A stretch of DNA of 64,000 bases, taken from Myxococcota bacterium. Lineage in GTDB: Bacteria > Myxococcota_A > UBA9160 > SZUA-336. The stretch is taken from assembly GCA_035499075.1 (NCBI GenBank), contig DATJZN010000056.1, positions 96,894 to 160,893 on the forward strand, read 5' to 3'. Below, piece after piece: positions 35,883-63,597 of the stretch; within the stretch, counting starts at the first letter, position 1; each line of letters begins with the position of its first letter. The position numbers were made by a program, and so were the translations under genes. Under the pieces are notes generated by a model. It had not been told where the DNA came from. It made no database searches and worked only from the letters and a program-made list of their open reading frames with translations.

Positions 35883-35885
35883 AGG

Positions 35886-35921
35886 TCCGAGGGTCGCATG
35901 GGCACCCTACCCATGCTCGGA
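35886..35921. promoter_or_regulatory. imperfect nested palindrome immediately upstream of the cyclase-STAND gene start
   Basis: TCCGAG-ggtcg-CATGGG-cacccta-CCCATG-c-TCGGA lies 4-40 nt upstream of the ATG at 35882; no downstream T-run, so not a canonical terminator. Confidence 0.25.
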
Positions 35922-40652: not shown

Positions 40653-41810
40653 GTGTCGGCGTTCCTGACGGCGCTCGCGCTGGCCGCCTGGCTGTACCTG
40701 GTGTTCGCCCGCGGACGCTTCTGGACGGCCGAGGTGCGCCTGGACGGGCGCGCGCGCGAGCCGGCGCGCTGGCCGGACGTGGTGGCGGTCGTCCCGGCGC
40801 GCGACGAGGCCGCGCTCCTGCCGCGCACCCTGCCCGCGCTGCTGGGCCAGGAGTACGCGGGCCAGCTGCGCATCGTCCTGGTCGACGACGAGAGCGCGGA
40901 CGGGACCGCCGACGCCGCGCGCGCGGCGGCGCGGGCGCACCCGAACGGCGCACGGCTCGAGGTGGTGCGCACGTCCGCGCGGCCGGGCGGCTGGGTCGGC
41001 AAGATGTGGGCGGTCGAGACCGGCGTATCCACGGCGCAGGCGGCAGATGCGCCGACCTGGTGGTGGCTCACCGACGCCGACGTGCTGCACGCGCCCGACA
41101 CGCTGGCGCGGCTCGTGGCGAAGGGCGAGAGCGAGCGCCTCGACCTGGTCTCGCTCATGGTGAAGCTCGACCGCGGCATGGGCTGGAACGCGCTGCTCGT
41201 GCCCGCGTTCGTGTACTTCTTCCAGCAGCTCTACCCGTTCCCGCTGGTGAACGACCCGGGCTCGCGCGTGGCGGCCGCGGCGGGCGGCTGCGTGCTGGTG
41301 CGCGCCGACGCGCTCGCGCGCGCGGGCGGGATCCCGGCGCTGCGCGGCGAGGTGATCGACGACTGCGCGCTGGGCCGCGCGGTGAAGGCCCAGGGCGCGA
41401 TCTGGCTCGGCCTCGCGGACCGCGAGGAGTCCGTGCGTCCCTACGACAGCGTCGACGACGTGTGGAACATGGTGGCGCGCAGCGCCTACACACAACTGCG
41501 TCACTCGCCGCTCTTGCTGGCGGGCACGCTCGCCGGACTCGCCCTGCTCTACGCGGTGCCGCCGCTCGGCGCGCTGGCGTGGGGGTTCGGCGGCGGCGAC
41601 GCCACGGGCGTGTTCGGCGCGTCGGCGTGGCTGCTGCAGGCGGCGTCGTTCGTGCCGACGCTCGCGCTGTACAAGCGCTCGCCCTGGCTGGCGCTCGCGC
41701 TGCCCGCTGCGGGCGCGTTCTACGCGGCCATGACCTTCGACTCCGCCCAGCGGCACTGGCGCGACCAGGGCGCCACGTGGAAGGGCCGCACGGGCGCGGG
41801 CGCCGACTAG
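40653..41810 (+). CDS. membrane-anchored glycosyltransferase family 2 (HpnB-like)
   Basis: GTG start; N-terminal TM, GT2 motifs VVAVVPARDEA, VLVDDESADGT, and C-terminal multi-TM tail as in HpnB-type GTs. Confidence 0.7.
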   Translation: MSAFLTALALAAWLYLVFARGRFWTAEVRLDGRAREPARWPDVVAVVPARDEAALLPRTLPALLGQEYAGQLRIVLVDDESADGTADAARAAARAHPNGARLEVVRTSARPGGWVGKMWAVETGVSTAQAADAPTWWWLTDADVLHAPDTLARLVAKGESERLDLVSLMVKLDRGMGWNALLVPAFVYFFQQLYPFPLVNDPGSRVAAAAGGCVLVRADALARAGGIPALRGEVIDDCALGRAVKAQGAIWLGLADREESVRPYDSVDDVWNMVARSAYTQLRHSPLLLAGTLAGLALLYAVPPLGALAWGFGGGDATGVFGASAWLLQAASFVPTLALYKRSPWLALALPAAGAFYAAMTFDSAQRHWRDQGATWKGRTGAGAD

Positions 41811-43054
41811 CCCAGCGCTTCCCGCCGGTCCTGCAGGAAGCGCTGTACCGCCGCGTCGCGCTCGAGGCCCAGCGCGAGCGAGTAGGCGCGCCGCGCCTCG
41901 TCGCGCGCGCCGGTGCGCGCCAGGAGCTGCGCGCGCGCCGCCCAGTACGGCTGGTACTCGACGAGCCGGCGGTCGGCCCCGATCTCGTCGAGCGCCAGGA
42001 GCGCGGCCTCGGGGCCCTTCACCTCGCCGAGCGCGACCGCGCGATTCAGCGCGACCACCGGCGAGCCGGACAGCGCGAGCAGCGCGTCGTACAGCGCGAG
42101 CACCTCCGCCCAGTTCGCGACTCCCGCGCGGCGCCGGTGCACGTGCGCCGACTGCAGCGCGGCCTCGAGCTGATAGCGGCCGATCGCGCCGTGCGCGCTC
42201 GCCGCGTGGAGCAGCGCCTCGGCCTCGTCGATCAGCGCCGCGTCCCAGCGCGCGGGGTCCTGCGCATCGAGCGGCACGTACTCGCCGTTCGCGTCGCGGC
42301 GCGCGGCGCGGCGCGCCTCCGCGTAGAGCATCATCGCGAGCAGGCCGAGCGCCTCGGGCTCGCCGGGCAGGAGCTCGACGACGAGCCGCCCCAGATCGAT
42401 GCCCTCGTCGGCCAGCTCGCGCCGCGCGACGTCGGCGCCGGCCGCATCGGCCCAGCCCTCCGCGAACGCGGCATAGATCGCCTCGAGCACCGCCTCGAGG
42501 CGCGCCGCGAGCTCGGCGCGCTCGGGCACGCGCAGCGGAATTCCGGCGCGGCGGATCTTCTGCTTCGCGCGCACGAGCCGCTGGCCCATCGCCGCGGGCG
42601 CCACCAGGAACGCCGACGCGATCGCCGCCGCGTCGAGCCCGACGACGACCTGCAGCATGAGCGGCGCGCGGATGCCCGCATCGAGCGCCGGGTGCGCGCA
42701 CGCGAACATGAGCGCGAGCCGCTCGTCGGGGATCTCGGGCGCATCGGGCGCCCGGTCGAGCTCGTCGCCGAGCCGCAGGATCTGCGCGGCCACCGCTTCG
42801 CCGCGCGCGCGCTTGCGCGACACGTCGACGAGCTTGCGGCGCGCGACCGTGAGCAGCCACGCCTCGGGCCGCGCGGGGCAGCCGTGCTTGGGCCAGTCGG
42901 CCAGCGCCGAGGCGAACGCTTCGCTGAGCGCGTCCTCGGCGCCGGCCAAATCGCGCGTGTGCGCGGCGAGCAGCGCGACGAGCTTGCCGTAGCTGCGCCG
43001 CGCGGCCGCTTCCGCAGCGACTCGCGCTTCGACAGCGCGAGCGTCGGAAGTCAC
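41807..43054 (-). CDS. RNA polymerase sigma-70 factor, ECF subfamily, with long C-terminal TPR-like extension (DUF6596-type)
   Basis: sigma2 region AEDALSEAFASALADW...PEAWLLTVARRKLVD; sigma4 IASAFLVAPAAMGQRLVRAKQKIR; about 280-aa helical C-terminal extension; GTG start (ORF also open to 43102). Confidence 0.7.
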   Translation of the reverse strand: MTSDARAVEARVAAEAAARRSYGKLVALLAAHTRDLAGAEDALSEAFASALADWPKHGCPARPEAWLLTVARRKLVDVSRKRARGEAVAAQILRLGDELDRAPDAPEIPDERLALMFACAHPALDAGIRAPLMLQVVVGLDAAAIASAFLVAPAAMGQRLVRAKQKIRRAGIPLRVPERAELAARLEAVLEAIYAAFAEGWADAAGADVARRELADEGIDLGRLVVELLPGEPEALGLLAMMLYAEARRAARRDANGEYVPLDAQDPARWDAALIDEAEALLHAASAHGAIGRYQLEAALQSAHVHRRRAGVANWAEVLALYDALLALSGSPVVALNRAVALGEVKGPEAALLALDEIGADRRLVEYQPYWAARAQLLARTGARDEARRAYSLALGLERDAAVQRFLQDRREALG

Positions 43055-43055
43055 C

Positions 43056-43403
43056 TCACATCGCCCAGATCGGCCGCACTTCGATGACGCCGCCCTGCGC
43101 ACCCGGACAGCGCGCCGCCCACGAAAGCGCGGCGTCCAGGTCCGGCACGTCGATCAGGAAGTAGCCGCCGAGCTGCTCCTTCGTGTCGGCGTACGGGCCG
43201 TTCAGCACCTGCGTCTTGCCGTCGGCCACGCGCACGGTCGTCGCGGTGTGCGTCGGCTGCAGGCGCGCGGAGCCGGCGTCCGCCCCCGCTTTCTTGATGG
43301 CGTCCGCGTACGCGAGGTATGCCTCGGTCGTGCGCTTGATCACGTCGGGCGGCCGCTGCGCGTAGGCCTTCTCGTCGGAATAGATCATGAGCAGGTATTG
43401 CAT
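43056..43403 (-). CDS. YciI-like (DGPF domain) protein, sigma-factor-associated
   Basis: MQYLLMIYSDE...GGYFLIDVPDLDAALSWAARCP hallmark of the YCII/DGPF family; immediately upstream of the ECF sigma gene. Confidence 0.75.
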   Translation of the reverse strand: MQYLLMIYSDEKAYAQRPPDVIKRTTEAYLAYADAIKKAGADAGSARLQPTHTATTVRVADGKTQVLNGPYADTKEQLGGYFLIDVPDLDAALSWAARCPGAQGGVIEVRPIWAM

Positions 43404-44564: not shown

Positions 44565-45394
44565 CTAGCGCCCCTTGAACACGGGCGTGCGCTTCTCGAC
44601 GAACGCCTTGGCGGCCTCGCGATGGTCCTCGGTCAGGCCCGTGTGGACGTGGTGCGTGGCCTCGAGGTCGAGACACTCCTCGGCGCTCGCGCCCTCCTGC
44701 GCCCGGTTCAGGTTCTCCTTCATGTACCGGTACGCCACCGTGGCACCCGCGGCGATGCGCGCGGCGAGCGCGCGCGTCTCGGCCTCGAGCGCGGCGTCGG
44801 GCACGACGCGGTTCACCAGCCCGAGGCGCTCGGCCTCCTTCGCGTCGACGCGATCGGACAGGTAGTAGAGCTCGCGCGCCTTGGCGGCGCCGACCAGGTG
44901 CGTGAGGAAGTACGTGCCGCCGTAGTCGCCGCTGAAGCCGACCTTCGCGAAGGCGGTGGTGAGGACCGCGCTCTCGGCCGCGATGCGCAGGTCGCACGCC
45001 AGCGCGAGCGACAGCCCAGCGCCCGCGGCCGCGCCGGGCAGCGCCGCGATCACGGGCTTGGGCATGCGGAAGATCCGGCCCGCCGTCTCGCGCTGCGAGA
45101 GCCGCTGGCGGTGGATGCGCTCGTCGAGCGTCGCACCCGCGCCGCCGCGGTTCGCGCCCGCCGCCATGCCCTTCACGTCGCCGCCGGCGCAGAACGCGCC
45201 GCCTGCGCCGGTGAGCACCAGACAGCGCACGTCGGCCGACGTCTCGGCTTCGCGCAGCGCCGCGGCCATCCCGCGCAGCATCTCGTCCGACAGCGCGTTG
45301 CGCCGCTCGGGCCGGTTCATCACGAGATAGGCGACGCCGTCCTCGATCTTCGCGTGCAGGTGATCCGTGCCGGTGTCGAGCGCGCGCGCCTCCG

Positions 45395-45398
<4 letters not shown>
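44565..45398 (-). CDS. enoyl-CoA hydratase/isomerase family protein
   Basis: Crotonase blocks LTGAGGAFCAGGDVK, ALPGAAAGAGLSLALACDLRIAAE; 277 aa. Confidence 0.85.
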
Positions 45399-46327
<929 letters not shown>

Positions 46328-46449: not shown

Positions 46450-47787
46450 TCAGACGGCTGTGAAAGTCACGGGCAAACCGTCGCGCGGCTTGGAAATCGG
46501 CGCCTGCTGCACGGGCATGGTGTAGCCCTCGGGCACGCTCCAGCGATAGCGCAGCAGCAGGTGGTGCATGACGAGCCGCACCTGCGCTTCCGCGAAACGC
46601 AGCCCGAGGCACATGTGCGGGCCGCCGCCGAACGGCGTGAACACGTGGGTGTGTCGCTCGTGCTCGGCGCGCGCGGGCGCGAAGCGCTCGGGGTCCCAGC
46701 GGAACGGCTCGGTCCACCACTCGGCCATGTGGTGCGTGTGGATCGGCGAGACCACGACCATGCAGCCGGCGGGGATCGCGTAGCCGCCGAACTCGAAGTC
46801 CGCGGTGTTCACGCGCGGAATGACGGGCAGCGGCGGGTAGCGCCGCAGGGTCTCGTTCAGCGCGAGCCCCAGCGACTCGAGCTTGCTCACGTCTTCGAGC
46901 CCGGGCTCGGCGACGCCGAGCGCGCGGCTCTCCTCGCGCACGCGCTCCTGCCACTCGGGATGCTTCGCGAGCTCGTACGTGAGCGACGACAGCGTGCTCG
47001 TGGTCGTGTCGTGCGCGGCCATCATGAGGAAGATCATGTGGTCGAGCACCTCGGAGTCCGAGAACGCCTCGCCCTCGGGCGTGCGCGCGCGGCAGAGCCG
47101 GCTGAACATGTCGGGGCCGGCGTCGCCGTGCTTCTTCTCGAGCATGCCGGCGAGCAGGTCGAGCATGTACTTGCGGCCGGCCAGCCCGCGCGCGAACTCG
47201 CGTCCGACGAGGGGCAGGCGGATCCGCGACATCGACGCCGCGACCATGTGCTCGAACGCGGCGTTCATGGGCTTCGTCGTCGGGCCGAGGTCCATGCCGA
47301 CGAAGATCGAGGCCGCGAGCTCGAGCGTCATCTGCTTGTAGGCGCGGAACGCGAGGAGCGGCGCGCCCGAGCTCGCGAAGCCCGACACGGCGCGCGCGAT
47401 CGTCGGGTTCATGCGCTCCACGTACTCGCGCAGCGCGGGGCGCGTGAACGCCTCGTGCATGATCTTGCGGTGGTGCTTGTGCTCCAGGCCGTCGCGGAGG
47501 AGCAGCCCGTTCGGGAAGATGCGCCCCATGATCTGCGTCCACGGCTTCTGGGCGCTGAACATCTGCTCGCGGTCCATCAACACGAGGCGCGCCGCGTCGG
47601 GACCGAACAGGTTCACGAGCTTGAACGGGCCGGAGAGCTGCAACACCACGGGACCGAGCTCGTCGTACTGCTGCTCGAGGCCCGAAAGCATGTCGACGCG
47701 GCCGCCGCCGCTCGCGGCGACCATGCGGAGCCCCTTCAGGAACCCGAGGCGCGGCATGGAACGAATGGGCTTCGCGGTTTCGGTCAT
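46450..47787 (-). CDS. cytochrome P450
   Basis: I-helix AAHDTTT, ExxR ETLRR, haem-binding FGGGPHMCLG; 445 aa. Confidence 0.9.
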   Translation of the reverse strand: MTETAKPIRSMPRLGFLKGLRMVAASGGGRVDMLSGLEQQYDELGPVVLQLSGPFKLVNLFGPDAARLVLMDREQMFSAQKPWTQIMGRIFPNGLLLRDGLEHKHHRKIMHEAFTRPALREYVERMNPTIARAVSGFASSGAPLLAFRAYKQMTLELAASIFVGMDLGPTTKPMNAAFEHMVAASMSRIRLPLVGREFARGLAGRKYMLDLLAGMLEKKHGDAGPDMFSRLCRARTPEGEAFSDSEVLDHMIFLMMAAHDTTTSTLSSLTYELAKHPEWQERVREESRALGVAEPGLEDVSKLESLGLALNETLRRYPPLPVIPRVNTADFEFGGYAIPAGCMVVVSPIHTHHMAEWWTEPFRWDPERFAPARAEHERHTHVFTPFGGGPHMCLGLRFAEAQVRLVMHHLLLRYRWSVPEGYTMPVQQAPISKPRDGLPVTFTAV

Positions 47788-47816
47788 GGTCGAGTCACTC
47801 CCCTCCAGCGCCGAGT

Positions 47817-49619
47817 CTAGTCCAGATGCGGGCAAAGGCGACGGATGCGCTGGATCAGCTCGCGGCGGTCGACCGGCTTCGTGGCGAAATCGTCGCAGCC
47901 CGCCGCGAGGCAGCTCTCGCGCGTGCCCGGCACGGCGTGCGCGGTGAGCGCGATGACCGGCTGGGCGAAGCCGCGCCGGCGCAGCTCGGCGGTCGCTTCG
48001 TAGCCGTCGAGCCCGGGCATCTGCATGTCCATGAGCACGACGTCGAACGGACGCGACACGCGCTCCGCCTCCGCCACGGCGTCGAGCGCGGCGCGGCCGT
48101 CGGTCGCGGTCTCGACGTGGGACCCCGCGCGGCGCAAGAGGTGCGAGATCAGGCGCAGGTTGTCGGGGCCGTCGTCGACGACGAGCACGCGCGCGGCGAG
48201 CGGGCGCGGCTCGCCAGTCTCGAGCACCACGGTCTCTTCCGTCGCGGCGTACGGCACGAGCACCCGGAACGTGCTGCCCGCGCCGAGCTCGCTCTCCACT
48301 TCGATGCGGCCGCCGAGCAGCTCGATCAGCCGCTTGCACATCGTCAGGCCGAGCCCCATGCGCTCGGTGCCGCCGCTCTCCGTCGCGCCGCGCATCCCCG
48401 GCAGAAACAGCGACTCGAGCCGTTCGGGCGCGATGCCGCGCCCCGTGTCGCGCACGCGCAGGTCGAGGCACGTCTCGCCGTTCTCGCGCGCGACGCCGAG
48501 CGAGACCTTCACGCTGCCGCGCTGCGTGAAGCGCAGCGCGTTCTCGACGAGCCGCGCCGCGACCTGGCGCAGGCGCGCGGGATCGCTGCGCACGAGGCCG
48601 GGCAGCGGCGGCACGCGCTCGAACTCGAGGGCCACGCCGCGCGCCGCGGCTTGCGCGCGCAGCGGCTCGACGAGCCCCGCCACGAGCTCGGACGGCGAGA
48701 ACGAGATGCGCTCGAGCTCGAGCTTGCCCGCTTCGATCTTCGACAGATCCAGCAGGTCGTTGATCGTCTCCAGCAGCTGGCGGCCGTTGCGCTGGATGAT
48801 GGCGAGCGCGTCGACGTGGCGCGCCTCGAAGCCCTTCTCGCGCCACTCGTCGCGCAGCACGTCGGCGAAGCCGAGGATCGCGGTCATCGGCGTGCGCACC
48901 TCGTGCGTGAGGGTCGCGAGGAAGTCGCTCTTGGACTCGCTCGCGCGCTCGGCCTCGTCGCGCGCGTGCGCGAGCTCGCCGTTCGCCTTCTCGAGCGTGC
49001 GCAGCGACAGCTCCTTGTTGCGCTCGAACACCAGCCCGGCGAGCGTCACCAGCGTCGCGAGGGAGCCGATGCTCACCAGCCAATGGAGCGAGCGCCATTC
49101 GGGCAGGATCTGGTTCTGCAGCACGAGACCGTGGTGCTCGAGCCAGGCGAGCGAGCCCGCTTCCGCCACGACGAGCGCGGCCCAGAAGATCGCCCAGCGG
49201 CGCGACACGAGCGCGACCGCCGTCATGGGCACGAGCACGTTCCAGAAGCTCGGCGGCGAGACCGGCCCGCCCGCGTAGTAGGTCAGCACGGTCAGCGTCG
49301 CGAAGCCGTACGCGAGCATCCAGTTGCCCGCGAGCTTCGTCGAGCCCGTGAAGCGCAGCACGAAGGGCACCGCGCCGCACATGGGCACGCAGGCGAGCAC
49401 GATTGCCGCGAGCCGGTACGCGAGCGCGGGTGGGAAGGCGATCCACTCGAGCGCCGCGAGGAGGGGCACGAACGCCATCGGCAGGAACGAGAAGCCCGCG
49501 ACGAGCGTCGCGGAGCGCGCCGCGACGGGATCGCCGCGCAGGCGCGGCGGCACGAACGCGGCCTCGATCCTGGCCTCGAGCGCGCGCATGAACGCCGGCC
49601 ACTCCGACGGCCTACGCAT
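47817..49619 (-). CDS. hybrid sensor histidine kinase / response regulator (membrane sensor + HisKA + HATPase_c + REC)
   Basis: Six predicted TM helices; H-box LATLTHEVRTP; G-boxes DTGRGI and GLGLTMCKRL; receiver VLVVDDGPDN...DVVLMDMQMPGLDG...K; alternative start at 49589. Confidence 0.85.
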   Translation of the reverse strand: MRRPSEWPAFMRALEARIEAAFVPPRLRGDPVAARSATLVAGFSFLPMAFVPLLAALEWIAFPPALAYRLAAIVLACVPMCGAVPFVLRFTGSTKLAGNWMLAYGFATLTVLTYYAGGPVSPPSFWNVLVPMTAVALVSRRWAIFWAALVVAEAGSLAWLEHHGLVLQNQILPEWRSLHWLVSIGSLATLVTLAGLVFERNKELSLRTLEKANGELAHARDEAERASESKSDFLATLTHEVRTPMTAILGFADVLRDEWREKGFEARHVDALAIIQRNGRQLLETINDLLDLSKIEAGKLELERISFSPSELVAGLVEPLRAQAAARGVALEFERVPPLPGLVRSDPARLRQVAARLVENALRFTQRGSVKVSLGVARENGETCLDLRVRDTGRGIAPERLESLFLPGMRGATESGGTERMGLGLTMCKRLIELLGGRIEVESELGAGSTFRVLVPYAATEETVVLETGEPRPLAARVLVVDDGPDNLRLISHLLRRAGSHVETATDGRAALDAVAEAERVSRPFDVVLMDMQMPGLDGYEATAELRRRGFAQPVIALTAHAVPGTRESCLAAGCDDFATKPVDRRELIQRIRRLCPHLD

Positions 49620-51021
49620 CGCTCTTCTCCGCGCCGAGCGGCAGCTCGACCCAGAACGTGCTGCCCGCGCCCACTCGGCTCTCGGCGCCGATCTCGCCGC
49701 CGAGCAGCTCGACGAGGCGCTTCGAGATCGACAGGCCCAGGCCCGTGCCGCCGTAGCGCCGCGCCGTGGAGGCGTCGGCCTGCGCGAACGGCTGGAACAG
49801 CCGGCCCATCTGCTCCTCCGAGATGCCGATCCCGCTGTCCTGCACCTCGAAGCGCAGCCGCGGACCGCGCGCGCCGTCGCGCTCGGCGAGCCGCAGCACC
49901 ACGCGGCCGGCGTCGGTGAACTTCAGCGCGTTGCCGAGCAGGTTGACGAGGACCTGGCGCAGCCGCCGCAGGTCGGTGTAGAGCGCCTCCGGCAGCGCGG
50001 GCGCGCACTCGACCGAGAGCGACAGCCCCTTCGCCTCGGCGCGGATGCTCATGAGACCCACCACCTCGGTCACCAGCTCGATCGGCGAGACGCGCGTCAC
50101 CTCCAGGTCGGAGTGCCCGGCGGCGATCTTCGAGAAGTCGAGGATGTCGTTGATGATCGACAGCAGGTGCTCGCCGTTGCGCCGGATCGTGCCGAGCGTG
50201 TTCGCGTAGCGCGCCGGCACCGCGCCGGACTCGCTCTCGCGCATCAGCAGCTCCGCGTAGCCGAGGATCGCCGTGAGCGGCGTGCGGATCTCGTGGCTCA
50301 CGTTCGCGAGGAAGTCGCTCTTGCTGCGGTTCGCCGCCTCGGCTTCGTCGCGCGCGCGTTCGAGCGCCAGGTTCGCGGCCACGAGCGTGCGGAGCGCCGA
50401 CTCCTTCGCGCGCTCGTAGATCATCACGAACACGAGACACAAGATCGTGATCGCCGAGATGCTCGACACCCAGAGCGGCGTGCGGCGCTCGAGCGGCAGG
50501 CGGTTGTGGAACTCGATCCCGCGCAGGTGCAGCGCGTACACCACCGCGTACTCGGCCATGCAGAGCGCGAGCCACGGCAGCGCCAGCCGCGGGCCGCCCG
50601 TCAGCATGGCCACCAGCGGGAGAATGATCGTCCAGTAGATCGACGACGAGAACGGCCCGCCGAACAGCGATGCCAGCGCGGTCAGCTGGACGAAGCTGTA
50701 GAAGAGCAGCAGGTTCGCGGCATGCTCGACGCGCCCCGTGGTGCGCAGGATGACGAGCGCGCCGAGCGACGCCGCGTTCGAGCCGAGCACGAGCGACACC
50801 GCGAACGTCGCGGTGTCGGCCGGCAGGCTGGTCGCGTAGGTCCACGCGAAGCCCGGCGACAAGAGCAGCGGCACCCAGCACGAGTACACCGCAGTGCGCG
50901 CGCGCCGCAGCGTATCGGCGTCGCTGCGCAGAGACTCGGGGACGAACCAGAGCACCAGCCGCTCGAAGGCGTGCGGCGTCGACCCTGCGCCGGGTGCCGG
51001 GCGTGGCTCGCGTCTTGGCAT
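49612..51021 (-). CDS. sensor histidine kinase with polytopic membrane sensor domain (paralog of the downstream hybrid kinase N-terminus)
   Basis: H-box LANVSHEIRTP; N-box/G-boxes VLVNLLGNALKF, DSGIGI, GLGLSISKRL; TM-rich N-terminus alignable to the neighbouring kinase. Confidence 0.85.
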   Translation of the reverse strand: MPRREPRPAPGAGSTPHAFERLVLWFVPESLRSDADTLRRARTAVYSCWVPLLLSPGFAWTYATSLPADTATFAVSLVLGSNAASLGALVILRTTGRVEHAANLLLFYSFVQLTALASLFGGPFSSSIYWTIILPLVAMLTGGPRLALPWLALCMAEYAVVYALHLRGIEFHNRLPLERRTPLWVSSISAITILCLVFVMIYERAKESALRTLVAANLALERARDEAEAANRSKSDFLANVSHEIRTPLTAILGYAELLMRESESGAVPARYANTLGTIRRNGEHLLSIINDILDFSKIAAGHSDLEVTRVSPIELVTEVVGLMSIRAEAKGLSLSVECAPALPEALYTDLRRLRQVLVNLLGNALKFTDAGRVVLRLAERDGARGPRLRFEVQDSGIGISEEQMGRLFQPFAQADASTARRYGGTGLGLSISKRLVELLGGEIGAESRVGAGSTFWVELPLGAEKSDA

Positions 51022-51037: not shown

Positions 51038-51655
51038 TCAGATCTCGCGCGTCATGTGCCAGACGATGCGGTCGGACTCCGGCCGCTCCCAGGCCCACAG
51101 ATCGGGCGAGTTGTGTTGACGCGCCATCTCGTTCGTGAAGCCGTCGGACGCCCACACCAGCGCGTCCGGATACTCGCGCGCCTGGGTCACTTCGATGAGC
51201 CAGCGCATCTTCCGGTCGGGATCCGGCTTGTGCGTCGTGCGACCGAAGTTGAGGATGCTCGAGCTGATCGTGGTGAGCCGCGTGAGGTCGCGGCCGAACG
51301 CCAGGAAGCGCGCTTCCTTGTCGCTCTCTCGCACGAACAGCGTGCGGTGCGTGTACTCGAGCTGCTGGTAGAGCCCGGCCTCGAGCAGGCGCTTCGCGTT
51401 CTTCGCGCCGCGCTTGCGCAGATACTCGTTGCTGCCGCCGCCCTCGACGTCGCGCAAGAGCTCGCTGAAGCGGGAGTACGCGCGGATGTCGTACCACTCG
51501 TGCGCCTGGACCGGCTCCTTGAAGAGCTCGAGGTCCTTCGGCTTGAGCCAGCGCGACAGCTCCTCCTGCTTCACGCGCTTCGCCGCGAGCAGCTTCTGGG
51601 TGTCTTCGACGAGGTGAACGAACACCGAGCCCTTGATCGAGGGGACGACCGGCAT
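51038..51655 (-). CDS. hypothetical protein, possibly DUF2378/TIGR02265-like (Myxococcales paralogous family)
   Basis: 205 aa, soluble; size and composition resemble TIGR02265 members; assignment from memory only. Confidence 0.45.
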   Translation of the reverse strand: MPVVPSIKGSVFVHLVEDTQKLLAAKRVKQEELSRWLKPKDLELFKEPVQAHEWYDIRAYSRFSELLRDVEGGGSNEYLRKRGAKNAKRLLEAGLYQQLEYTHRTLFVRESDKEARFLAFGRDLTRLTTISSSILNFGRTTHKPDPDRKMRWLIEVTQAREYPDALVWASDGFTNEMARQHNSPDLWAWERPESDRIVWHMTREI

Positions 51656-51768: not shown

Positions 51769-53193
51769 TCACGGCTCGGCGAGCGAGAGATGTCCGTCGC
51801 GCAGCTCCACGGTCGGGCAGAAGTCGCCGGCCGGCTCGCGCGTCCACCAGGCGCCCGCGCGCCACTCGGCGAAAGAGGCGAACTTGTACCGGAAGAGCGG
51901 CGTGCGCAGGTAGCGCGGCGGCGCGTCCGGGAACGGGTTCCGCGCGAGCAGGGCCGAGACGCTCGGCGAGCCCTCGAGCAGCCGCACGAGGAACGCCTGG
52001 AACCAGGGCTCGTCGCGGCACGTCGAGAGCGCCGCGAACCACATCTGCCAGTCGACGCGCGGCATGTGCGGGCCCGCGAAACCGGGCCGGCGCTCGAGCG
52101 GGCCGGGCTTCCAGCGGAACTCGTAGGCACGCCACTCCGCGCCGTCGCTCGAGCCTTCGATCTGGATCTCGGGCCGCTCGCGCGTCATCACGGCGAACAG
52201 GCCGTACGAGTTGACGCTGCGCAGGGGCCAGAGCCAGCCGAGCGCGGCGCGCGCCGGCTCGGGAAAGGCGGCGCGCGGGGTCAGCCGCTCGAGCGCGACG
52301 CCGACGCTGGCGAGCAGCAGCAGCGCGGCCGCGACACGCCAGGGAGTGACACGCTTTGGTGTCGGGTGTTCCGGAGCCGGTCCGATCCACCGCGCCAGCA
52401 TGCGGTCGTCGAGCGCCGCGAAGCACAGGGCCAGCGTCAGCCCGTTGAAGAAGCCGTAGTTGCCCGTGCCGGCGATGAGGAGCTGCAGCCCCGCGAGCAC
52501 CGCCGCGCTCGCCCCCCGCACGCGCCGCGGACCCAGGATTCCCCAGGGCACGAGACACTCGATCGCGACCGTCGCGGCCGTCGACGCCTTCTGCACCCCG
52601 ACGGGCAGCTGCGCGGCGAAGAAGCTCGCCTCCCACGGCAGCGGCTGCGTCCAGAAGTGGTAGGTGAGCGCCGTGCCGTCGCGCCACGTCGAATCGCCCG
52701 ACAAGAGCTTCACCGCGCCCGACATGAACATCAGCTTCAGGAGGAGCGCGCGCGCGAGCCACACGCCGAGGCGCGGCTCGCTCGACGCCGCGAACAGCGC
52801 CACGAGCCCGGCCTCGAGCAACAGCGCATCCCACTGGAAGCTCAAGAACACGTCGCCCACGTTCACGAGCGAGAGGTACGCGAGCCACGCCGCGAGCGCG
52901 GCCCACGACCGGAAGCGCCCGGCGACCAGGAGCGCCGCCGCGATCGCGCCGGCTCCGCACATCGCGCGCAGCGCCCAGTCACTCGCACCGGTCACCCAGA
53001 ACAGGGTGGGCAGCACGAGCGGCGCGCTGGCGCCCGCGCGGTCGCGGACGAACTCGAGCAGCTGCCCCGCCGGGGCGATGCCGGACGCGCCCACCAAGCC
53101 GATGATCTGCACCGCGAGCGAAGCGAACGCGCACAGGTAGACCCCGCCCAGGAGGCGCAGGAAGAGCTCGGCAACCCGCTCTGTCGGCTCCAC
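51769..53193 (-). CDS. lipase maturation factor (LMF) family membrane protein
   Basis: N-terminal polytopic domain ELFLRLLGGVYLCAFASLAVQIIGL plus C-terminal soluble domain, matching the LMF1-like layout; GTG start inferred. Confidence 0.6.
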   Translation of the reverse strand: MEPTERVAELFLRLLGGVYLCAFASLAVQIIGLVGASGIAPAGQLLEFVRDRAGASAPLVLPTLFWVTGASDWALRAMCGAGAIAAALLVAGRFRSWAALAAWLAYLSLVNVGDVFLSFQWDALLLEAGLVALFAASSEPRLGVWLARALLLKLMFMSGAVKLLSGDSTWRDGTALTYHFWTQPLPWEASFFAAQLPVGVQKASTAATVAIECLVPWGILGPRRVRGASAAVLAGLQLLIAGTGNYGFFNGLTLALCFAALDDRMLARWIGPAPEHPTPKRVTPWRVAAALLLLASVGVALERLTPRAAFPEPARAALGWLWPLRSVNSYGLFAVMTRERPEIQIEGSSDGAEWRAYEFRWKPGPLERRPGFAGPHMPRVDWQMWFAALSTCRDEPWFQAFLVRLLEGSPSVSALLARNPFPDAPPRYLRTPLFRYKFASFAEWRAGAWWTREPAGDFCPTVELRDGHLSLAEP

Positions 53194-54546: not shown

Positions 54547-54999
54547 GTGTCCGCCGAGGTCGGAGAGAGCGCGCCGGACTTCGCGCTGCCGTCGAGCCGC
54601 GGGCCGGTGGCGCTCAAGAGCCTGCTGGCCAAGGGCCCCGTGCTGCTCGTCTTCTACCCCGGCGATGACACACCCGTGTGTACCAAGCAGCTCTGCGACT
54701 ACCGCGACAACCTCGCGGTGTTCGAGAAGCTGGGCGTGCAGGTGGTCGCGCTGAACCCGCAGAGCGAGGCGTCGCACCAGAAGTTCGCCGAGAAGCACCG
54801 CCTGCCGTTCCCCGTCGCTGCGGACGGGGGCGGCAACGTGACGAAGGCGTACGGCGCGCGCGGCCTGTTCGGCATGACCAAGCGCGCGCTCGTGCTCGTC
54901 GGGCGCGACGGCAAGGTCGTGTGGCGGAAGGTCGACTTCCCGCTGTTCTACGAGACGACCGACGACGTGCGCGGCGCGCTCGAGCGGCTGCGGCTGTAA
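54547..54999 (+). CDS. bcp: peroxiredoxin, Bcp-type thiol peroxidase
   Basis: GESAPDFALP...LLVFYPGDDTPVCTKQLCDYRD peroxidatic Cys motif; GTG start 3 nt after thiolase stop. Confidence 0.85.
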   Translation: MSAEVGESAPDFALPSSRGPVALKSLLAKGPVLLVFYPGDDTPVCTKQLCDYRDNLAVFEKLGVQVVALNPQSEASHQKFAEKHRLPFPVAADGGGNVTKAYGARGLFGMTKRALVLVGRDGKVVWRKVDFPLFYETTDDVRGALERLRL

Positions 55000-55766
55000 C
55001 GCGCCACGCGCGCCGGGTCGGCGCGTTCCATCTGCAGCACCAGCAGCCCGTCGAGCGAGTCGCCGAAGGCGCGGTCGACGTGCCACGCCGCGAACTCACC
55101 GCCCAGCTCGAGGTAGCGCTTCACCAGGACGGGCAGGCCCGCGCCGTCGGGCTCGAGCGCCGAGACCTGCGCCGACAGCTCGCGCGGCTCGGCGAGCGCG
55201 TGCGCTGCGGAGAAGTCGGCCGCATCCAGCTCGAACGGCACGCGCGCGCGCACCAGACCGTCGCTCTCGAGATGCCGGTGGTGCAGCAGCAGCGCGGCAG
55301 CGACGAGCCCGCGCGAACGGCGCGAGTAGCTCGACGACACCGACACGGCGCCGAAGAGCGAGCGCGCGCCCGTGAGCTCGACGGCGCCGTGGATGCCCTT
55401 CCACAGCAGCGCCAGGACGCGCGAGCAGCGCTGGTACTCGGGCGTGACGAACGCGCGGCCGAGCTCGATCGCGGGGCCGAGCTTCGCCAGGAACTCGCGA
55501 TCGTAGTCGAACAGCGTGTGCGTGTAGAGCGCGTGCGGGAGCTCGTGCGCGGCGAACTCCTCGGTCGCGGCGAGCCGGTATGCGCCGGCCAGCGCGCGGC
55601 GCTCGCGATCCCACACGAACAAGTGTCCGTAGCGCGAATCGAAGCGGTCCAGGTCCAGGTCGCCGCCCGTGCCCTCGCCGACGGCGCGGAACGCGCACTC
55701 GCGCAGACGCCCGATCTCTCGCAGGAGCTCGGGGATCTGCGGCGCGCGCGCCAGCGCGACCAGCAT
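54948..55766 (-). CDS. olsB: ornithine-acyl-ACP N-acyltransferase-like GNAT (OlsB family)
   Basis: OlsB-like N-terminal block LVALARAPQIPELLREIGRLRECAF...DLDRFDSRYGHLFVWD. ORF is open to ATG 55889, but the first 22 codons have atypical A/T-ending codons and contain direct repeats, so the ATG at 55766 is preferred. Confidence 0.6.
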   Translation of the reverse strand: MLVALARAPQIPELLREIGRLRECAFRAVGEGTGGDLDLDRFDSRYGHLFVWDRERRALAGAYRLAATEEFAAHELPHALYTHTLFDYDREFLAKLGPAIELGRAFVTPEYQRCSRVLALLWKGIHGAVELTGARSLFGAVSVSSSYSRRSRGLVAAALLLHHRHLESDGLVRARVPFELDAADFSAAHALAEPRELSAQVSALEPDGAGLPVLVKRYLELGGEFAAWHVDRAFGDSLDGLLVLQMERADPARVARYSRSRSSAPRTSSVVS

Positions 55767-55845
55767 GCGGTCGGTTTCCAGCAGCCGTGCGCTCTCCGGC
55801 AGTCGGGCGATCTCGGCTTCGAGAACGCCGTGGCGACACGGATCT

Positions 55846-55881
55846 GCGTCACACGAGAATGCGTCACACGTAAATGCGTAG
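55846..55881. promoter_or_regulatory. direct repeats TGCGTCACACG (x2, plus partial third copy TGCGTA) with 4-nt spacers in the olsB 5' region
   Basis: Plus strand TGCGTCACACG-agaa-TGCGTCACACG-taaa-TGCGTA; lies in the AT-richer divergent olsB/olsA intergenic region. Confidence 0.3.
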
Positions 55882-56047
55882 TCGTTCATTTGCCCGTAAG
55901 TTCGGTTTCTCTCATGACGAACCGCGTTCGCGCCGGCGAAGAAACGGCGAGCACCCGGTTCGTACGCGAATCGTCACCGGGCCGTCACGCGCGCGGCCGA
56001 GCTTCCCTGCAGAACGAGACGAACAAACAAGCGAGGGAACCATCGTG

Positions 56048-56791
56048 TCGAGACACTCCGCACCGCTCGCCACTTACAGACTCCTGCGCATGGCCGCGGC
56101 CACCACGCGCTCACTCGCCGCGCTGAAGCTCGAGAAGACGCGCAGCGGCGGCTGCGTTCACGCCGCCGCGAAGCACGGCCACGCCTGGGCACGACGGCTG
56201 CTCGGCGCGCTGGGCGTGGAAGTCGAGGTGCGCGGCGCACCGCTGCCGGGCCCGCACCTGTTGCTCGGCAACCACCGCTCGTACATCGACATCCTGGCCG
56301 TGCTGGGGGTCGCGCCGTGCGGCTTCCTGGCCAAGTCCGAGATCGCGAGCTGGCCGGTGTTCGGCGCCGCCGCGAGCCTGCACCCGACGGTGTTCGTGAC
56401 CCGCGACGACCGCGACAGCCGCAAGCGCGCGCGCGAAGGGGCGCTCGCCATCCTGCAGAAGGGCTTGCCGTTCGCCGCGTTCCCCGAGGGCACGACCTGC
56501 CGCGGGCCGGGCATCCTGCCCTTCTTCCCGGGGCTCTTCCGCGTCGCCGAGGAGTACGACTTCCCCATCGTGCCCTTCGCGCTGGAGTACGAGGACCGCG
56601 CGGACGCCTGGGTCGACGACGACCCGTTCGTCGGCCACTTCCTCCAGACGTTCGGCAAGCCGCGGGTGCGGCTCCTGCTCAGCTTCGGGCCCGCGCTGCG
56701 GCGCCGCCCGAGCGAGGAGATGCGCCGCGACGCCAGCGACTGGATCCGGGGCGAAGTGCGCGCAGCGGCGAGAGCGCTCGCGACCCGCTGA
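56048..56791 (+). CDS. olsA: lysophospholipid acyltransferase (PlsC family; OlsA-like O-acyltransferase)
   Basis: H(X)4D motif GNHRSYIDI and FPEGTT block; GTG start with GAGGGAA RBS; divergent from the olsB-like gene. Confidence 0.65.
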   Translation, partial: SRHSAPLATYRLLRMAAATTRSLAALKLEKTRSGGCVHAAAKHGHAWARRLLGALGVEVEVRGAPLPGPHLLLGNHRSYIDILAVLGVAPCGFLAKSEIASWPVFGAAASLHPTVFVTRDDRDSRKRAREGALAILQKGLPFAAFPEGTTCRGPGILPFFPGLFRVAEEYDFPIVPFALEYEDRADAWVDDDPFVGHFLQTFGKPRVRLLLSFGPALRRRPSEEMRRDASDWIRGEVRAAARALATR

Positions 56792-60306: not shown

Positions 60307-60996
60307 TCAGCCCGTGCGCTGGACGATCGCGAGCCTGCGGCGGTCGCGCTCGCGGAACCCGACGCGCGCGTAGAGCGCCGTCGCCGTCGCCTCGGACGGC
60401 GAGCCCGCGCGCACGTGCAGGAACGGCACGTCGCCGCGCGCCTGCGCTCCGGCTGCGACCGCGCGCACGAGCGCTTCGGCGAGGCCGCGACCGCGCGCCT
60501 CGGGCGCCGTGCAAACACCACTCACTTCTGTGTAGCCCGCGGGCTTGAGCCGCTCGCCGGCCATGGCCACGAGCGCGCCGTCGGCGCGCACGCCGACGTA
60601 GCGGCCCATCTCGAGCGTGCGCGTTCCGAACGGTCCCGGCTCGGTGCGGGCGACGAGCGCCAGCATGTCGGCCACGTCGGCCGGGCCGAGCTCCGGGAAC
60701 GCGCGGTCCGGCGGCGCGACCTTCTCCTCGCAGACCATCTGGATCACCTCGAAGCCGCCGAGTGCGCGCCAGCCCGGCGCATCGAGCGCGGCGTCGGCGC
60801 CGGTCAGCGCCACCACGCCGCCCACGGGCAGCAGCTGCGCCAGATCCACGAGCGCCGCGACGTCGGGCTCGCCGAGCGCGGCGAACGGACTCACCTCCGC
60901 CGGGTACCGCCGGGCCCGGCCCGCGCGCAGCGCCAGGTGCGCGTGCGCGCCGCCGAGCGAGTGCCACGCCGGCTGGTCGAGGCGCTCGTGAGTCAC
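60307..60996 (-). CDS. GNAT family N-acetyltransferase
   Basis: Acetyl-CoA binding block GVCTAPEARGRGLAEALVRAV; GTG start overlapping ligD stop (GTGA). Confidence 0.7.
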   Translation of the reverse strand: MTHERLDQPAWHSLGGAHAHLALRAGRARRYPAEVSPFAALGEPDVAALVDLAQLLPVGGVVALTGADAALDAPGWRALGGFEVIQMVCEEKVAPPDRAFPELGPADVADMLALVARTEPGPFGTRTLEMGRYVGVRADGALVAMAGERLKPAGYTEVSGVCTAPEARGRGLAEALVRAVAAGAQARGDVPFLHVRAGSPSEATATALYARVGFRERDRRRLAIVQRTG

Positions 60997-63494
60997 GCGA
61001 GCCGCTCCGCGAGCGCGCCGAGCAAGCCGACCGCGTCGACGCCCGGCCCGAGCACCGGCGCCAGCGGGTCGCCGCCCTTCTCGAGCCGCGGCACCGCCGT
61101 CTTGATCGTGAACTTCGTGGGGTCGAGCCGCGCGTTCACGTGCTTCCATTCGAGCGGCATCGACACGGGCGCGCCCGGCCGCGGGCGCACCGAGAACGGG
61201 CCGGCGATGAGCTTGCCGCGGCCGTTCTGCAGGTAGTCGACGTACACCTTGTCGCCGCGCGCGGCGACGGGCCGCGTGATCGTCGCGATCTCGGACAGGT
61301 CGGCGCACACCGCTCGCGCGAGCACCTCGGCCAGCCGCCGCGTGTCGTCGTGGTCGAGCTGGCGGCCGAGCGGCACCAGCACGTGCAGGCCGTCCTGTCC
61401 CGACGTCTTCGCGAAGTGGGCGGCGCCGAGCTCGTCCAATAGCGCGTGGATGTGCCGCGCGATCTCGATCACGTGCGCGAACGGCGCCTGCTTGGGGTCC
61501 AGGTCGAGGATGAGCCAATCGGGCCGGTCGAGCGCGTCGCGCCGCGAGCTCCACACGTGCAGCGGGATCGCGCCCGAGTTGATCACGTACAAGAGCGTGC
61601 GCAGCTCGTTGCACACGAAGTAGTCGGTGCCCTCGATCTGCTCGCGCAGCACCCAGTCGGGCGTGAAATCGGGCGCGTTCTTCTGATAGAAGTTCTTGCC
61701 CTCGATGCCGTCGGGATAGCGCGTCAGCACGAGCGGCCGGTCGCGCAGGTACGGCGCGAGCCACGGCCACACCGCTTCGTAATAGGCGAGCAGATCACCC
61801 TTGGTGTAGCCCTCGACGGGCCAGAACACCTTCTCGAGCCGCGTGAGTCGCAGCGCCCCGGCGGGCGCGGGCTTCGCCGTCGGCGGGGCCGGCGCCTCGG
61901 CGGGAAGCTCGCGCAGCTCCGCCGGCGCCTCGCACGTCTCGGGCGAGACGTCGGGCTGCACCCGCACGAACACGGGATGGCGCAGCATGCCCGCGCTCGT
62001 GACTTCGCCGTAGCGGATCTGCGCGACGAGCTCCGGCCGCGCGAACACCAGGCCGCGCAGCGCGGGCGGGTTCTCGAACGCCGGCTTCTCGACGCGCCGC
62101 GCGTCGAGCTCGGCGCGCAGCTCGGCGACGGCGGAGGCGTCGAGGCCCGAGCCCGCCGAGCCCGCGTACACGAGCTTCCCGCCGACGCGCCACGCGAGCA
62201 ACAGCGAGCCGAGCGGCGCACGCGTGCCCTTCCCGGGCTGGTAGCCCACGACGACGAGATTCGCGGTGCGCGGCAGCTTGATCTTGAGCCAGCTCTTCGA
62301 GCGCCGGCCGCTCTCGTACTTGGAATCGGCGCGCTTCGCCACGATGCCCTCGAGCGCGTTCGCGCGCGCGGCCTCGAGCAGCGCCTCGCCTTCGACCGCG
62401 ACGTGGTCCGAGAAGCGCACGTAGCCGTTGCGCGGCACGAGGTGCGAGAGGACCTCCTTGCGCGTCGCCAGCGGCAGCGCCCGCAGGTCGAAGCCCGCGG
62501 CGGAGAGCGCGTCGAACGCGAAGTACACGACCGGCGTGTCGAGCTCGGCCCGCGGCTTCGCCTCGCCGCGGAAGCGCGTCTGCAGCCGCTCGAACGATGC
62601 GCGGCCGCGCTCGTCGAGCGCCACGACCTCGCCGTCGATCGTGCACTCCGACACCGGAAGGTGTCGCACGGCGCGCGCGATCTCCGGATACGTCTGCGTG
62701 GCGTCGCGCCCGCTGCGCGCGGCGAGCTTCACGCTGCCGTCCGCGCGCTTCGTCGCGAGCACGCGGGCGCCGTCGTACTTCACCTCGAACAGCCAGCCCT
62801 CGCGCGTGAACGCGGCGTCGGCGATCTCGGCGAGCATCGGCTCGAGGGCCGAGGCGGGCAGCGCGCGCTCGGGAGCGCCGGCCGCGCGCGCGAGCGCGGC
62901 GACTTCGTCGGTGTGACTCACCCGATCGCGCAGCTCCGCTACCGTGAGCCCCGACAGCACCGAGCCCGGCTCCGCGATCACCAGCTCGGGCTCGGGCGGC
63001 TTGCCTTTCCACTTCGAGAGCCACAGCCAGCTCTTCCCGGCCTCGCCCTTCATGCGCACCAGGCCGAAGCGCCCGCGCAGCTTGTGGCCCTCCAGCAGCA
63101 GGTCGAGCTTCCCCGCAGCGAGGCCCTCGGCCGGCGAGCGCCCTTCCACCGTCCGATAGCAGCCGCGGTCCCACACGATCATCGCGCCCGCGCCGTAGTT
63201 CCCCGCGGGGATCACGCCCTCGAAGTCCGCATACTCGAGCGGATGGTCCTCGGTCTGCGCTGCGAAGCGCTTCTCCTTCGGGTCGAGCGTCGGGCCCTTG
63301 GGAATGGCGAAGCTGACCAGTGCACCGTCGATCTCGATACGAAAGTCCCAGTGCATGGACCGCGCCGCGTGTTGCTGGACGACGAATGCGCGCGCCGCGT
63401 TGGGGGGCAGCGCACGGGCCTCGTCTTCGCCGCCGAACGGCTCGGGCGTCGCGTTCGGATCCCGCTTCTCGCGGTACCGCCGGAGGTCGGCCAT
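60993..63494 (-). CDS. ligD: ATP-dependent DNA ligase D (NHEJ), domain order phosphoesterase - ligase - polymerase/primase
   Basis: N-terminal PE domain (FVVQQHAARSMHWDFRIE); ligase adenylation lysine motif WLFEVKYDGAR and EGIVAK; C-terminal LigD Pol domain (RYPDGIEGKNFYQKN, HVWSS, LDLDP); start at internal ATG MADLRRY. Confidence 0.85.
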   Translation of the reverse strand: MADLRRYREKRDPNATPEPFGGEDEARALPPNAARAFVVQQHAARSMHWDFRIEIDGALVSFAIPKGPTLDPKEKRFAAQTEDHPLEYADFEGVIPAGNYGAGAMIVWDRGCYRTVEGRSPAEGLAAGKLDLLLEGHKLRGRFGLVRMKGEAGKSWLWLSKWKGKPPEPELVIAEPGSVLSGLTVAELRDRVSHTDEVAALARAAGAPERALPASALEPMLAEIADAAFTREGWLFEVKYDGARVLATKRADGSVKLAARSGRDATQTYPEIARAVRHLPVSECTIDGEVVALDERGRASFERLQTRFRGEAKPRAELDTPVVYFAFDALSAAGFDLRALPLATRKEVLSHLVPRNGYVRFSDHVAVEGEALLEAARANALEGIVAKRADSKYESGRRSKSWLKIKLPRTANLVVVGYQPGKGTRAPLGSLLLAWRVGGKLVYAGSAGSGLDASAVAELRAELDARRVEKPAFENPPALRGLVFARPELVAQIRYGEVTSAGMLRHPVFVRVQPDVSPETCEAPAELRELPAEAPAPPTAKPAPAGALRLTRLEKVFWPVEGYTKGDLLAYYEAVWPWLAPYLRDRPLVLTRYPDGIEGKNFYQKNAPDFTPDWVLREQIEGTDYFVCNELRTLLYVINSGAIPLHVWSSRRDALDRPDWLILDLDPKQAPFAHVIEIARHIHALLDELGAAHFAKTSGQDGLHVLVPLGRQLDHDDTRRLAEVLARAVCADLSEIATITRPVAARGDKVYVDYLQNGRGKLIAGPFSVRPRPGAPVSMPLEWKHVNARLDPTKFTIKTAVPRLEKGGDPLAPVLGPGVDAVGLLGALAERLA

Positions 63495-63597
63495 GCGAAA
63501 CGATGGTAGCGCGAACCGGTTGCTCGTTCGGAGACACCGGAGGTAAAACGACCTCCGCTCGCGTTCACGGAGAAGCTGGCGGATGAAGGAGTCCCAG

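Follow-up and report, generated by a model that had tools for sequence, protein, structure and literature searches.

Results

Two Adjacent Kinase Genes and Their Immediate Neighbors

The window analyzed here is a 64,000-nucleotide (nt) stretch of a contig from an uncultured Myxococcota bacterium (DATJZN010000056.1; ~72% G+C) that carries, on the minus strand, two adjacent genes encoding a sensor histidine kinase (HK1; 49612–51021, 469 amino acids, aa) and a hybrid kinase (HK2; 47817–49619, 600 aa). Pfam assigns HisKA and HATPase_c domains and no receiver to HK1, and HisKA, HATPase_c, and Response_reg domains to HK2. The stop of HK1 overlaps the start of HK2 by 8 nt (49612–49619, minus strand, ATGCGTAG). 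An alternative HK2 ATG at 49589 would leave a 22-nt gap after HK1; gene callers prefer the upstream, overlapping start, and overlapping starts are also found in relatives (8 nt at locus L092 and 4 nt, ATGA, at locus L009). Downstream of HK2, a 29-nt spacer (47788–47816) with the ribosome-binding-site-like GGAGGGGAG just before the ATG leads into the gene for a soluble cytochrome P450 on the same strand (46450–47787, 445 aa; PF00067, 224 bits). On the other side, upstream of HK1, a gap of 16 nt follows the end of the minus-strand gene orf205 (51038–51655, 205 aa), whose soluble product is predicted to adopt an H-NOX/V4R-like fold. A preliminary description made from the sequence alone had overlooked orf205. 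The co-directional unit of kinase, hybrid kinase-receiver, and P450 that it reported, with an 8-nt overlap or a 22-nt gap depending on the choice of HK2 start, stands in all its coordinates and junctions, and both start options exist.

A codon-position G+C scan and the list of open reading frames (ORFs) gave an unambiguous series of co-directional minus-strand genes. The same gene calls were made by independent callers on seven separate soil metagenome contigs (ENA, JGI), on which the P450 protein is identical to that of the window. Because the genes are co-directional with spacings of 16, −8, and 29 nt, and because the spacing is kept in relatives (HK2 and P450 lie ~5–45 nt apart across relatives and are tightly spaced in L009 as well), co-transcription from orf205 to P450 is plausible, as judged by gene arrangement.

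HK1 and HK2 Are Paralogues with an Asymmetric Set of Catalytic Motifs

Aligned end to end, HK1 and HK2 share 40% identity (E = 1e-89). The preliminary description had seen an alignable membrane domain at both N-termini, and this homology is borne out: the N-terminal domains alone are 33% identical over 207 residues, ungapped (E = 4e-29). Even the DNA retains a trace of the paralogy: two stretches of 184 and 119 nt recur as direct repeats, 74% identical and 1387–1390 nt apart. Topology and hidden Markov model (HMM) analysis, the check that the same description had proposed for these domains, placed the sensors at ~aa 26–210 of HK1 and ~aa 22–206 of HK2, each with about six membrane helices and short loops by hydropathy, and found HK1 weakly similar to MASE6 (see below). 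In each module the sensor domain joins a TorS/BarA-type kinase core directly. The cores score best against the models of TorS, BarA, LuxQ, and RcsC, and miss all curated NCBIfam cut-offs by a wide margin.

HisKA scores 78.6 bits in HK1 and 68.5 bits in HK2, and both proteins have the H-box histidine in this dimerization and histidine phosphotransfer (DHp) domain (HK1, FLANVSHEIRTPL; HK2, FLATLTHEVRTPM). The H, N, G1, F, and G2 boxes of HK1 are all canonical. HK2 retains the H, N (ENALRFT), and G1 (DTGRGI) boxes, but its F box and ATP lid are divergent (LFLPGMRGATESGGTERMGLGL): HK2 reads LFLPGMRGATES--GGTERMGLGL in this region, whereas HK1 reads LFQPFAQADASTARRYGGTGLGL. The degenerate F box and lid are common to HK2 and its relatives P0124 and P0125. 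The HK2 receiver (aa 478–593, nt 47841–48188; Response_reg, 95.5 bits) is intact, with the DD, D, T, and K residues in place (VVDD, LMDMQMP, ALTAH, and ATKP). Across the clade of close relatives that share this gene block, the catalytic and ATP-binding (CA) domain is 62–78% conserved in HK2 versus 79–82% in HK1, and the DHp domains and the receiver are 76–90% conserved. By this measure, the catalytic domain of HK2 appears to evolve faster than that of HK1.

The Sensor Is a Modular Membrane Domain at the Edge of the MASE6 Family

HK1 scored 16.7 bits against MASE6 (PF20966) as a whole protein and 19.1 bits with the domain alone, below the Pfam gathering cut-off of 27.4 bits that we took as the threshold for membership; HK2, which likewise falls short of this threshold, gave no MASE6 match in Pfam. 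Among 75 sensor relatives detected by profile, 23 match MASE6 (best E = 6.7e-10) and five match MASE11. The link between the sensor and MASE6 is only transitive, because it runs through these relatives. Family members combine the sensor with kinase, receiver, PAS, GAF, GGDEF, and MCP modules, and the domain has in common with MASE6 a polytopic N-terminal layout of ~170–200 aa, short loops, and the same range of output domains. On the strength of these profile matches, the sensor is best described as a genuine modular membrane domain at the edge of the MASE6 family, that is, as divergent MASE6-like. We know of no ligand for MASE6, and a literature search on the domain found nothing.

Single-Chain Double Kinases Repeat the HK1-HK2 Layout

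A word-indexed search with the HK2 sensor returned only two matches, being too insensitive for a hydrophobic domain, and an exhaustive profile search was used instead. The profile, which combined both sensor domains of the window with two close relatives, was run against 1.84 billion representative proteins and matched 1333 of them at E ≤ 1e-3 and 258 at E ≤ 1e-10. About half of the best matches (17 of 33) are proteins of 859–1319 aa with two copies of the sensor. Pfam scans of six two-module proteins showed HisKA and HATPase_c twice in every one, in the layout sensor-HisKA-HATPase(-REC)-sensor-HisKA-HATPase-REC, where REC is the receiver. Two receivers are present in four of the six (P0126, P0129, P0132, and P0144), while P0136 (1073 aa) and P0140 (1078 aa) have one and reproduce the exact HK1+HK2 layout in a single chain. 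Such a tandem fusion of modules is possible topologically, because an even number of helices leaves both ends of a module in the cytoplasm.

In a neighbor-joining tree of the kinase cores, drawn without support values, 15 of 16 first modules group with HK1, and second-module cores fall outside the HK1 group, several of them near HK2. This grouping indicates that the duplication behind HK1 and HK2 is old and long predates the present lineage. The preliminary description had read the pair as a tandem duplication; the two are indeed true paralogues, but a local, recent event is not supported, since the tree puts the pair before this lineage, and the term holds only historically.

Several of the fused proteins have lost motifs in a complementary manner. 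In P0136, the phospho-acceptor His of module 1 is replaced by Gln (SQDLRTP) with the CA domain intact, while module 2 keeps its His and has a degenerate lid. P0147 lacks G1 in module 1, and its module 2 has an intact CA domain and an Arg in place of the His (SRDLQAP). P0139 has lost the His of module 1, and P0135, P0137, P0144, and P0152 retain the His of module 2 with degenerate ATP-binding motifs in the CA domain. Complementary decay of this kind is what would be expected if phosphorylation crosses between modules, from the CA domain of one to the His of its neighbor, although it is not proof of such an exchange.

A further database protein, P0122 (373 aa), is a relative of window positions 48987–50480. 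In it, an HK1-like segment made up of the final sensor helix, the DHp domain, and the N box runs straight into an HK2-like sensor at residue ~27, and the remainder of the catalytic domain is skipped. Its origin is either a deletion that fused the two paralogues or a chimeric assembly.

orf205 Is a Predicted Non-Haem Member of the H-NOX/V4R Fold Class

The 347 homologues of orf205 are near-constant in length (205 aa) and come mostly from Myxococcota metagenome-assembled genomes, which have several paralogues each. Neither Pfam nor NCBIfam gave a match even at E = 10, and Pfam HNOB was not matched; the JGI label of one homologue is "predicted hydrocarbon binding protein". An AlphaFold2 model computed from 45 sequences (mean predicted local distance difference test score, pLDDT, 87.9) has an H-NOX-like predicted fold. 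We considered a haem-binding H-NOX and rejected it: 17 of the 45 homologues have H103, none of the other His or Cys residues of the window protein is invariant across all 45, and the YxSxR motif is absent, region 129–139 reading TISSSILNFGR. With no conserved His and no YxSxR, haem binding and nitric oxide sensing are not expected. The model therefore identifies orf205, at the level of predicted fold, as a non-haem member of the H-NOX/V4R class, for which a small hydrophobic ligand is plausible. Haem H-NOX proteins deliver signals to partner kinases, and the position of orf205 in front of a kinase gene mirrors H-NOX-kinase operons, whereas the orf205 family itself is found mostly away from kinases. 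In nine relatives, orf205 is tightly coupled to HK1.

The P450 Gene Joined the Kinase Unit Once, in One Clade

The haem Cys loop (FGGGPHMCLG), the ETLR motif, and the I-helix motif (AAHDTTT) of the P450 are invariant in 15 orthologues, and C393, E312, R315, D260, and T261 are invariant in alignment A1. The best 120 database homologues are 63–100% identical to the window protein. The closest solved structure is CYP120A1 of Synechocystis (2ve3), aligned over residues 42–441 (E = 1.3e-41), which the window P450 resembles in being soluble and ~445 aa long. By convention, membership of a CYP family takes at least 40% identity to a family member. We rejected assignment to CYP120, as identity to 2ve3 is ~30%, a value estimated from the alignment rather than computed, and thus below the 40% family level. 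With identity below that level, the substrate cannot be transferred from CYP120A1.

A scan of one genome per species for the P450 gave 574 relatives, and we compared the best 80 loci with 10-kb flanks. Among these 80, the order HK1-HK2-P450-reductase-hydratase is confined to L007, L008, and L009, whose P450s are 81–82% identical to that of the window, and the kinase pair is found at none of the remaining 77 orthologue loci (45–74% identity). At three loci with 70–76% identity (L087, L088, and L100), the P450 gene lies 12–64 nt behind a gene for a DegT/DnrJ/EryC1-type aminotransferase, and TetR-AurF-OsmC genes follow downstream in all three. Genes for a ChsH1/ChsH2/Ltp2-like hydratase-aldolase lie upstream in L088 and L100 and are mere remnants in L087; an MBOAT gene is near the P450 in L088 only. 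The aminotransferase context is the more widely conserved one and may tell more of the P450 substrate than the kinase neighborhood does. A P450 orthologue at 65% identity stands alone.

Four loci (L033, L036, L040, and L051) have a different kinase gene, or a convergent pair, 1–3 kb upstream of the P450 orthologue. The convergent pair, from another clade (L033, 1043–5130; L040, 4526–8789), consists of a ~450–530-aa kinase and a REC-PAS-GAF-GAF kinase, as assigned by Pfam in L033 and L040 only, and in L040 two unannotated ORFs of 182–236 aa lie between the convergent kinases and the P450. We judged this second kinase-P450 association to be background: some kinase lies in the flanks at 8 of the 77 loci, adjacent in none. 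The arrangement does, however, recur in four loci.

A metagenome scan anchored on the HK2 sensor gave eight loci, all from one clade and all with the same block, namely a thiolase gene on the opposite strand followed by the genes for LMF1, orf205, HK1, HK2, P450, reductase, and hydratase. L092 and L093 have this block as well. Because the opposite-strand thiolase and the rest are equally kept, the adjacency is ordinary gene-order conservation among close relatives, and because the proximity of kinase pair and P450 is limited to one clade, the two came together once, at the base of that clade. The fused double kinases at L090, L091, and L094 have unrelated neighbors and no P450. The suggestion in the preliminary description that the substrate or product of the P450 is tied to the sensed signal thus finds no comparative support, either at the 77 loci or among these fused kinases. 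Its other suggestion, that a lipid or hydrophobic compound is sensed in the membrane, fits loosely with an all-membrane MASE6-like sensor and the H-NOX/V4R-type orf205. Neither a substrate nor a signal should be assigned on the basis of kinase-P450 adjacency, because this adjacency fails outside one clade.

A Single Receiver and No Phosphorelay Partner Were Found at the Locus

An HMM built from 72 receivers was searched against the six-frame translation of the whole window and found, in all six frames of the 64 kb, only the receiver of HK2 itself. This agrees with the earlier statement that no DNA-binding response regulator is encoded nearby. No Hpt (histidine phosphotransfer) domain was found in HK1, HK2, or the neighboring proteins scanned. 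Compared to a classical His-Asp-His-Asp phosphorelay, the locus thus contains the receiver and neither the Hpt domain nor the terminal regulator.

Other Genes in the Window

Downstream of the P450, after a gap of 122 nt (~25–50 nt in relatives), lies a minus-strand gene for an aldo/keto reductase (45395–46327, 310 aa), whose stop overlaps by 4 nt the gene for an enoyl-CoA hydratase on the same strand (44565–45398, 277 aa). A 35-nt gap follows the hydratase, which probably ends the conserved co-directional block; further downstream are genes for a methyltransferase, a YCII protein, and an extracytoplasmic function (ECF) sigma factor. At the other end, the minus-strand gene for an LMF1-like membrane protein (51769–53193, 474 aa; LMF1 and LMF1_C domains) is separated from orf205 by 113 nt and is the upstream neighbor of the kinase block throughout the clade. 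Its product is a bacterial homologue of the eukaryotic lipase maturation factor (144–157 bits). Folding of the P450-reductase and LMF1-orf205 intergenic regions was no more stable than that of shuffled sequences (z-scores of −0.14 and +1.65, respectively), and Rfam gave no match at gathering thresholds in 40–56 kb.

A divergent gene pair encodes an Acetyltransf_5 protein (OlsB-like N-acyltransferase) (54948–55889, minus strand) and a PF01553 (PlsC/OlsA-like) acyltransferase (56045–56791, plus strand), a pairing that we take to suggest synthesis of an ornithine-type lipid. This acyltransferase pair adds to the lipid theme around the P450, which includes the thiolase, LMF1, and hydratases. In 41807–43403 (minus strand), a YCII-domain gene is separated by 1 nt from an ECF-type sigma factor gene with DUF6596, and an Rv2258c-like HTH-methyltransferase gene lies just upstream of the two; L092 has not retained the 41807–43403 part. 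At 60993–63773 (minus strand), the window encodes a LigD-type DNA ligase D of full length, which combines phosphoesterase, ligase, and primase-polymerase domains. A polyketide synthase could have placed the P450 in a biosynthetic setting, but we rejected this identity for the 2051-aa ORF at 29751–35906 (minus strand), which instead has double zinc-ribbon, adenylate/guanylate cyclase, AAA_16, and SnoaL-like domains and ~900 residues without a Pfam match.

Discussion

The better-supported content of this analysis is a MASE6-like double kinase of old origin, either paired or fused, whose motifs have decayed asymmetrically and to which a non-haem H-NOX-fold protein is attached in one clade. Beyond this, we propose, at a level of confidence that is about even, that HK1 and HK2 represent, in split form, a two-module sensor-kinase unit of old standing and act together as one hetero-oligomeric kinase. 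HK1, with all its catalytic motifs intact, would supply most of the ATP-dependent activity. HK2, with its His and a complete receiver but a divergent lid, would serve mainly as the phosphoryl acceptor and pass the signal on to its own receiver. The output would lie beyond the locus, either in an Hpt protein and a response regulator encoded elsewhere in the genome or in an effect that the receiver has through protein-protein interaction. Within this clade of Myxococcota, orf205 would probably deliver a small-molecule signal to the kinases by a route other than haem. The P450, the aldo-keto reductase, and the enoyl-CoA hydratase are most likely co-transcribed enzymes of lipid-type metabolism, whose gene group would have come to lie beside the kinase unit in one lineage without being a conserved partner of the kinases.

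A number of observations weigh against this proposal. HK2 keeps its N and G1 boxes and the GLGL motif, and its CA domain is still 62–78% conserved in the clade; judged by these motifs, HK2 may be catalytically active. In about half of the fused proteins, both modules have their full set of motifs, so that each module can evidently be a complete kinase, and the kinase-core tree carries no support values. orf205 is missing in L009, which keeps HK1-HK2-P450, and orf205 paralogues elsewhere stand alone without kinases; thus, orf205 is not obligatory to the kinase unit. Consensus scans of 41.5–55 kb found no promoter-like site, which makes any operon boundaries tentative, and the four terminator-like sites in the same region equal the chance expectation and all lie inside genes. 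The HK1-HK2 heteromer, the direction of phosphoryl flow, the ligand of orf205, and co-transcription are all points that we infer.

Other arrangements of the two kinases can be envisaged. EspA and EspC of Myxococcus form a multi-kinase network, and HK1 and HK2 might similarly be two independent homodimeric kinases, each with its own cue, that both phosphorylate or dephosphorylate the HK2 receiver; alternatively, a Red-like relay might run through the second DHp domain. The phospho-acceptor His is kept in both HK1 and HK2, no motif is missing from either module in many of the fused relatives, and of the six that were scanned, four carry a pair of receivers in alternating order. Furthermore, the sensors are only 33% identical, which allows for different ligands. 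The complementary loss of His versus ATP-binding motifs in P0136, P0147, and P0139 is hard to explain with independent homodimers, however, and HK1 has no receiver, so that a T1-R1-T2-R2 relay (T, transmitter; R, receiver) cannot run at this locus even though such a relay, citing RedCDEF, was proposed for two-transmitter loci (Williams and Whitworth, PMC3018481). We regard this pair of possibilities as unlikely. Doubtful, but conceivable, is an obligate HK1-HK2 heterodimer in which one protomer gives the CA domain and the other the His and the receiver. The fused relatives would then be single-chain pseudo-heterodimers with two membrane sensors each, and in this clade the pair would in addition respond to a small hydrophobic ligand via the non-haem H-NOX-fold partner, possibly one made or removed by the co-transcribed P450.

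Two further explanations give the P450 a larger part. The signal perceived by the kinases could be a membrane lipid or hydrophobic compound that the adjacent P450 either consumes or produces, and the kinases could, via an unseen regulator, control the P450-reductase-hydratase genes. Tight spacing in every clade member (three genome loci, L092 and L093, and the eight metagenome loci where the contig reaches), the all-membrane sensor, the H-NOX/V4R-like fold of orf205 with its one homologue labelled as hydrocarbon binding by JGI, and a lipid-themed neighborhood of thiolase, enoyl-CoA hydratase, acyltransferases, and LMF1 would all fit such a sensory-metabolic circuit. It is nevertheless rather improbable: 77 of the 80 genome loci with P450 orthologues are without the kinase pair, the P450 follows a DegT-type aminotransferase at 70–76% identity, fused double kinases occur in unrelated contexts, and no regulator that would close the loop is present in the 64 kb. 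Moreover, the whole block is syntenic in the clade, opposite-strand thiolase included, and the adjacency is not specific. In the actinobacterial conservons, a P450 encoded in a kinase operon is predicted to contact the kinase ATPase domains (PMC13343842), and the short distance between HK2 and P450 (29 nt here, ~5–45 nt in relatives) would suit a P450 that likewise acts as an accessory modulator of the kinases rather than as a metabolic enzyme, in the manner of the CvnE-type P450s attached to CvnA kinases. We consider this very improbable indeed, because the window P450 belongs to a large, conserved orthologue family with invariant catalytic motifs that is mostly found without kinases, and because CvnB, CvnC, and CvnD are absent.

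The hetero-oligomeric kinase that we favor has partial counterparts among known systems. HK2 resembles the TorS, BarA, and ArcB hybrids in having a fused receiver; here, however, the neighborhood lacks both an Hpt domain and a cognate regulator. GacS, RetS, LadS, and PA1611 provide documented cases of heteromer formation and trans-phosphorylation among paralogous hybrid kinases (PMC12189002), whereas in the present family the partners are adjacent paralogues with the same type of sensor and are often fused. Proteins with two transmitters are rare (53 of ~20,354 kinases) and almost all of them are hybrids (Williams and Whitworth, PMC3018481); our search of the literature on double and tandem kinases found nothing specific beyond that survey. 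Like HK1 and HK2, the two-transmitter loci of the survey (Williams and Whitworth 2010) combine two transmitters, usually with receivers, but here each transmitter has its own six-helix sensor, and the survey is silent on complementary motif decay. The Red system distributes T1, R1R2, T2, and R3 over separate soluble and membrane proteins, whereas the locus described here has the composition T, TR. The nearest precedent for a kinase and a P450 in one operon is the actinobacterial conservon, CvnA-D with the P450 CvnE (PMC13343842). A Pfam scan of all genes in 41.8–57 kb found no roadblock protein (CvnB), CvnC, or small GTPase (CvnD), and we rejected membership of the locus in the conservons, from which it also differs in phylum, kinase type, and P450 family.

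Histidine kinases are textbook homodimers, and paralogues are thought to become insulated from one another after duplication. As a rule, paralogous kinases evolve so as not to heterodimerize, and an obligate HK1-HK2 heterodimer, if true, would be an exception found in nature. The non-haem H-NOX-fold family to which orf205 belongs, with 347 homologues in uncultured Myxococcota, is a second uncharacterized candidate for ligand binding. The family of paired and fused double kinases offers a natural system for studying heteromeric, asymmetric kinase signaling, as well as for finding out what MASE6-type sensors detect.

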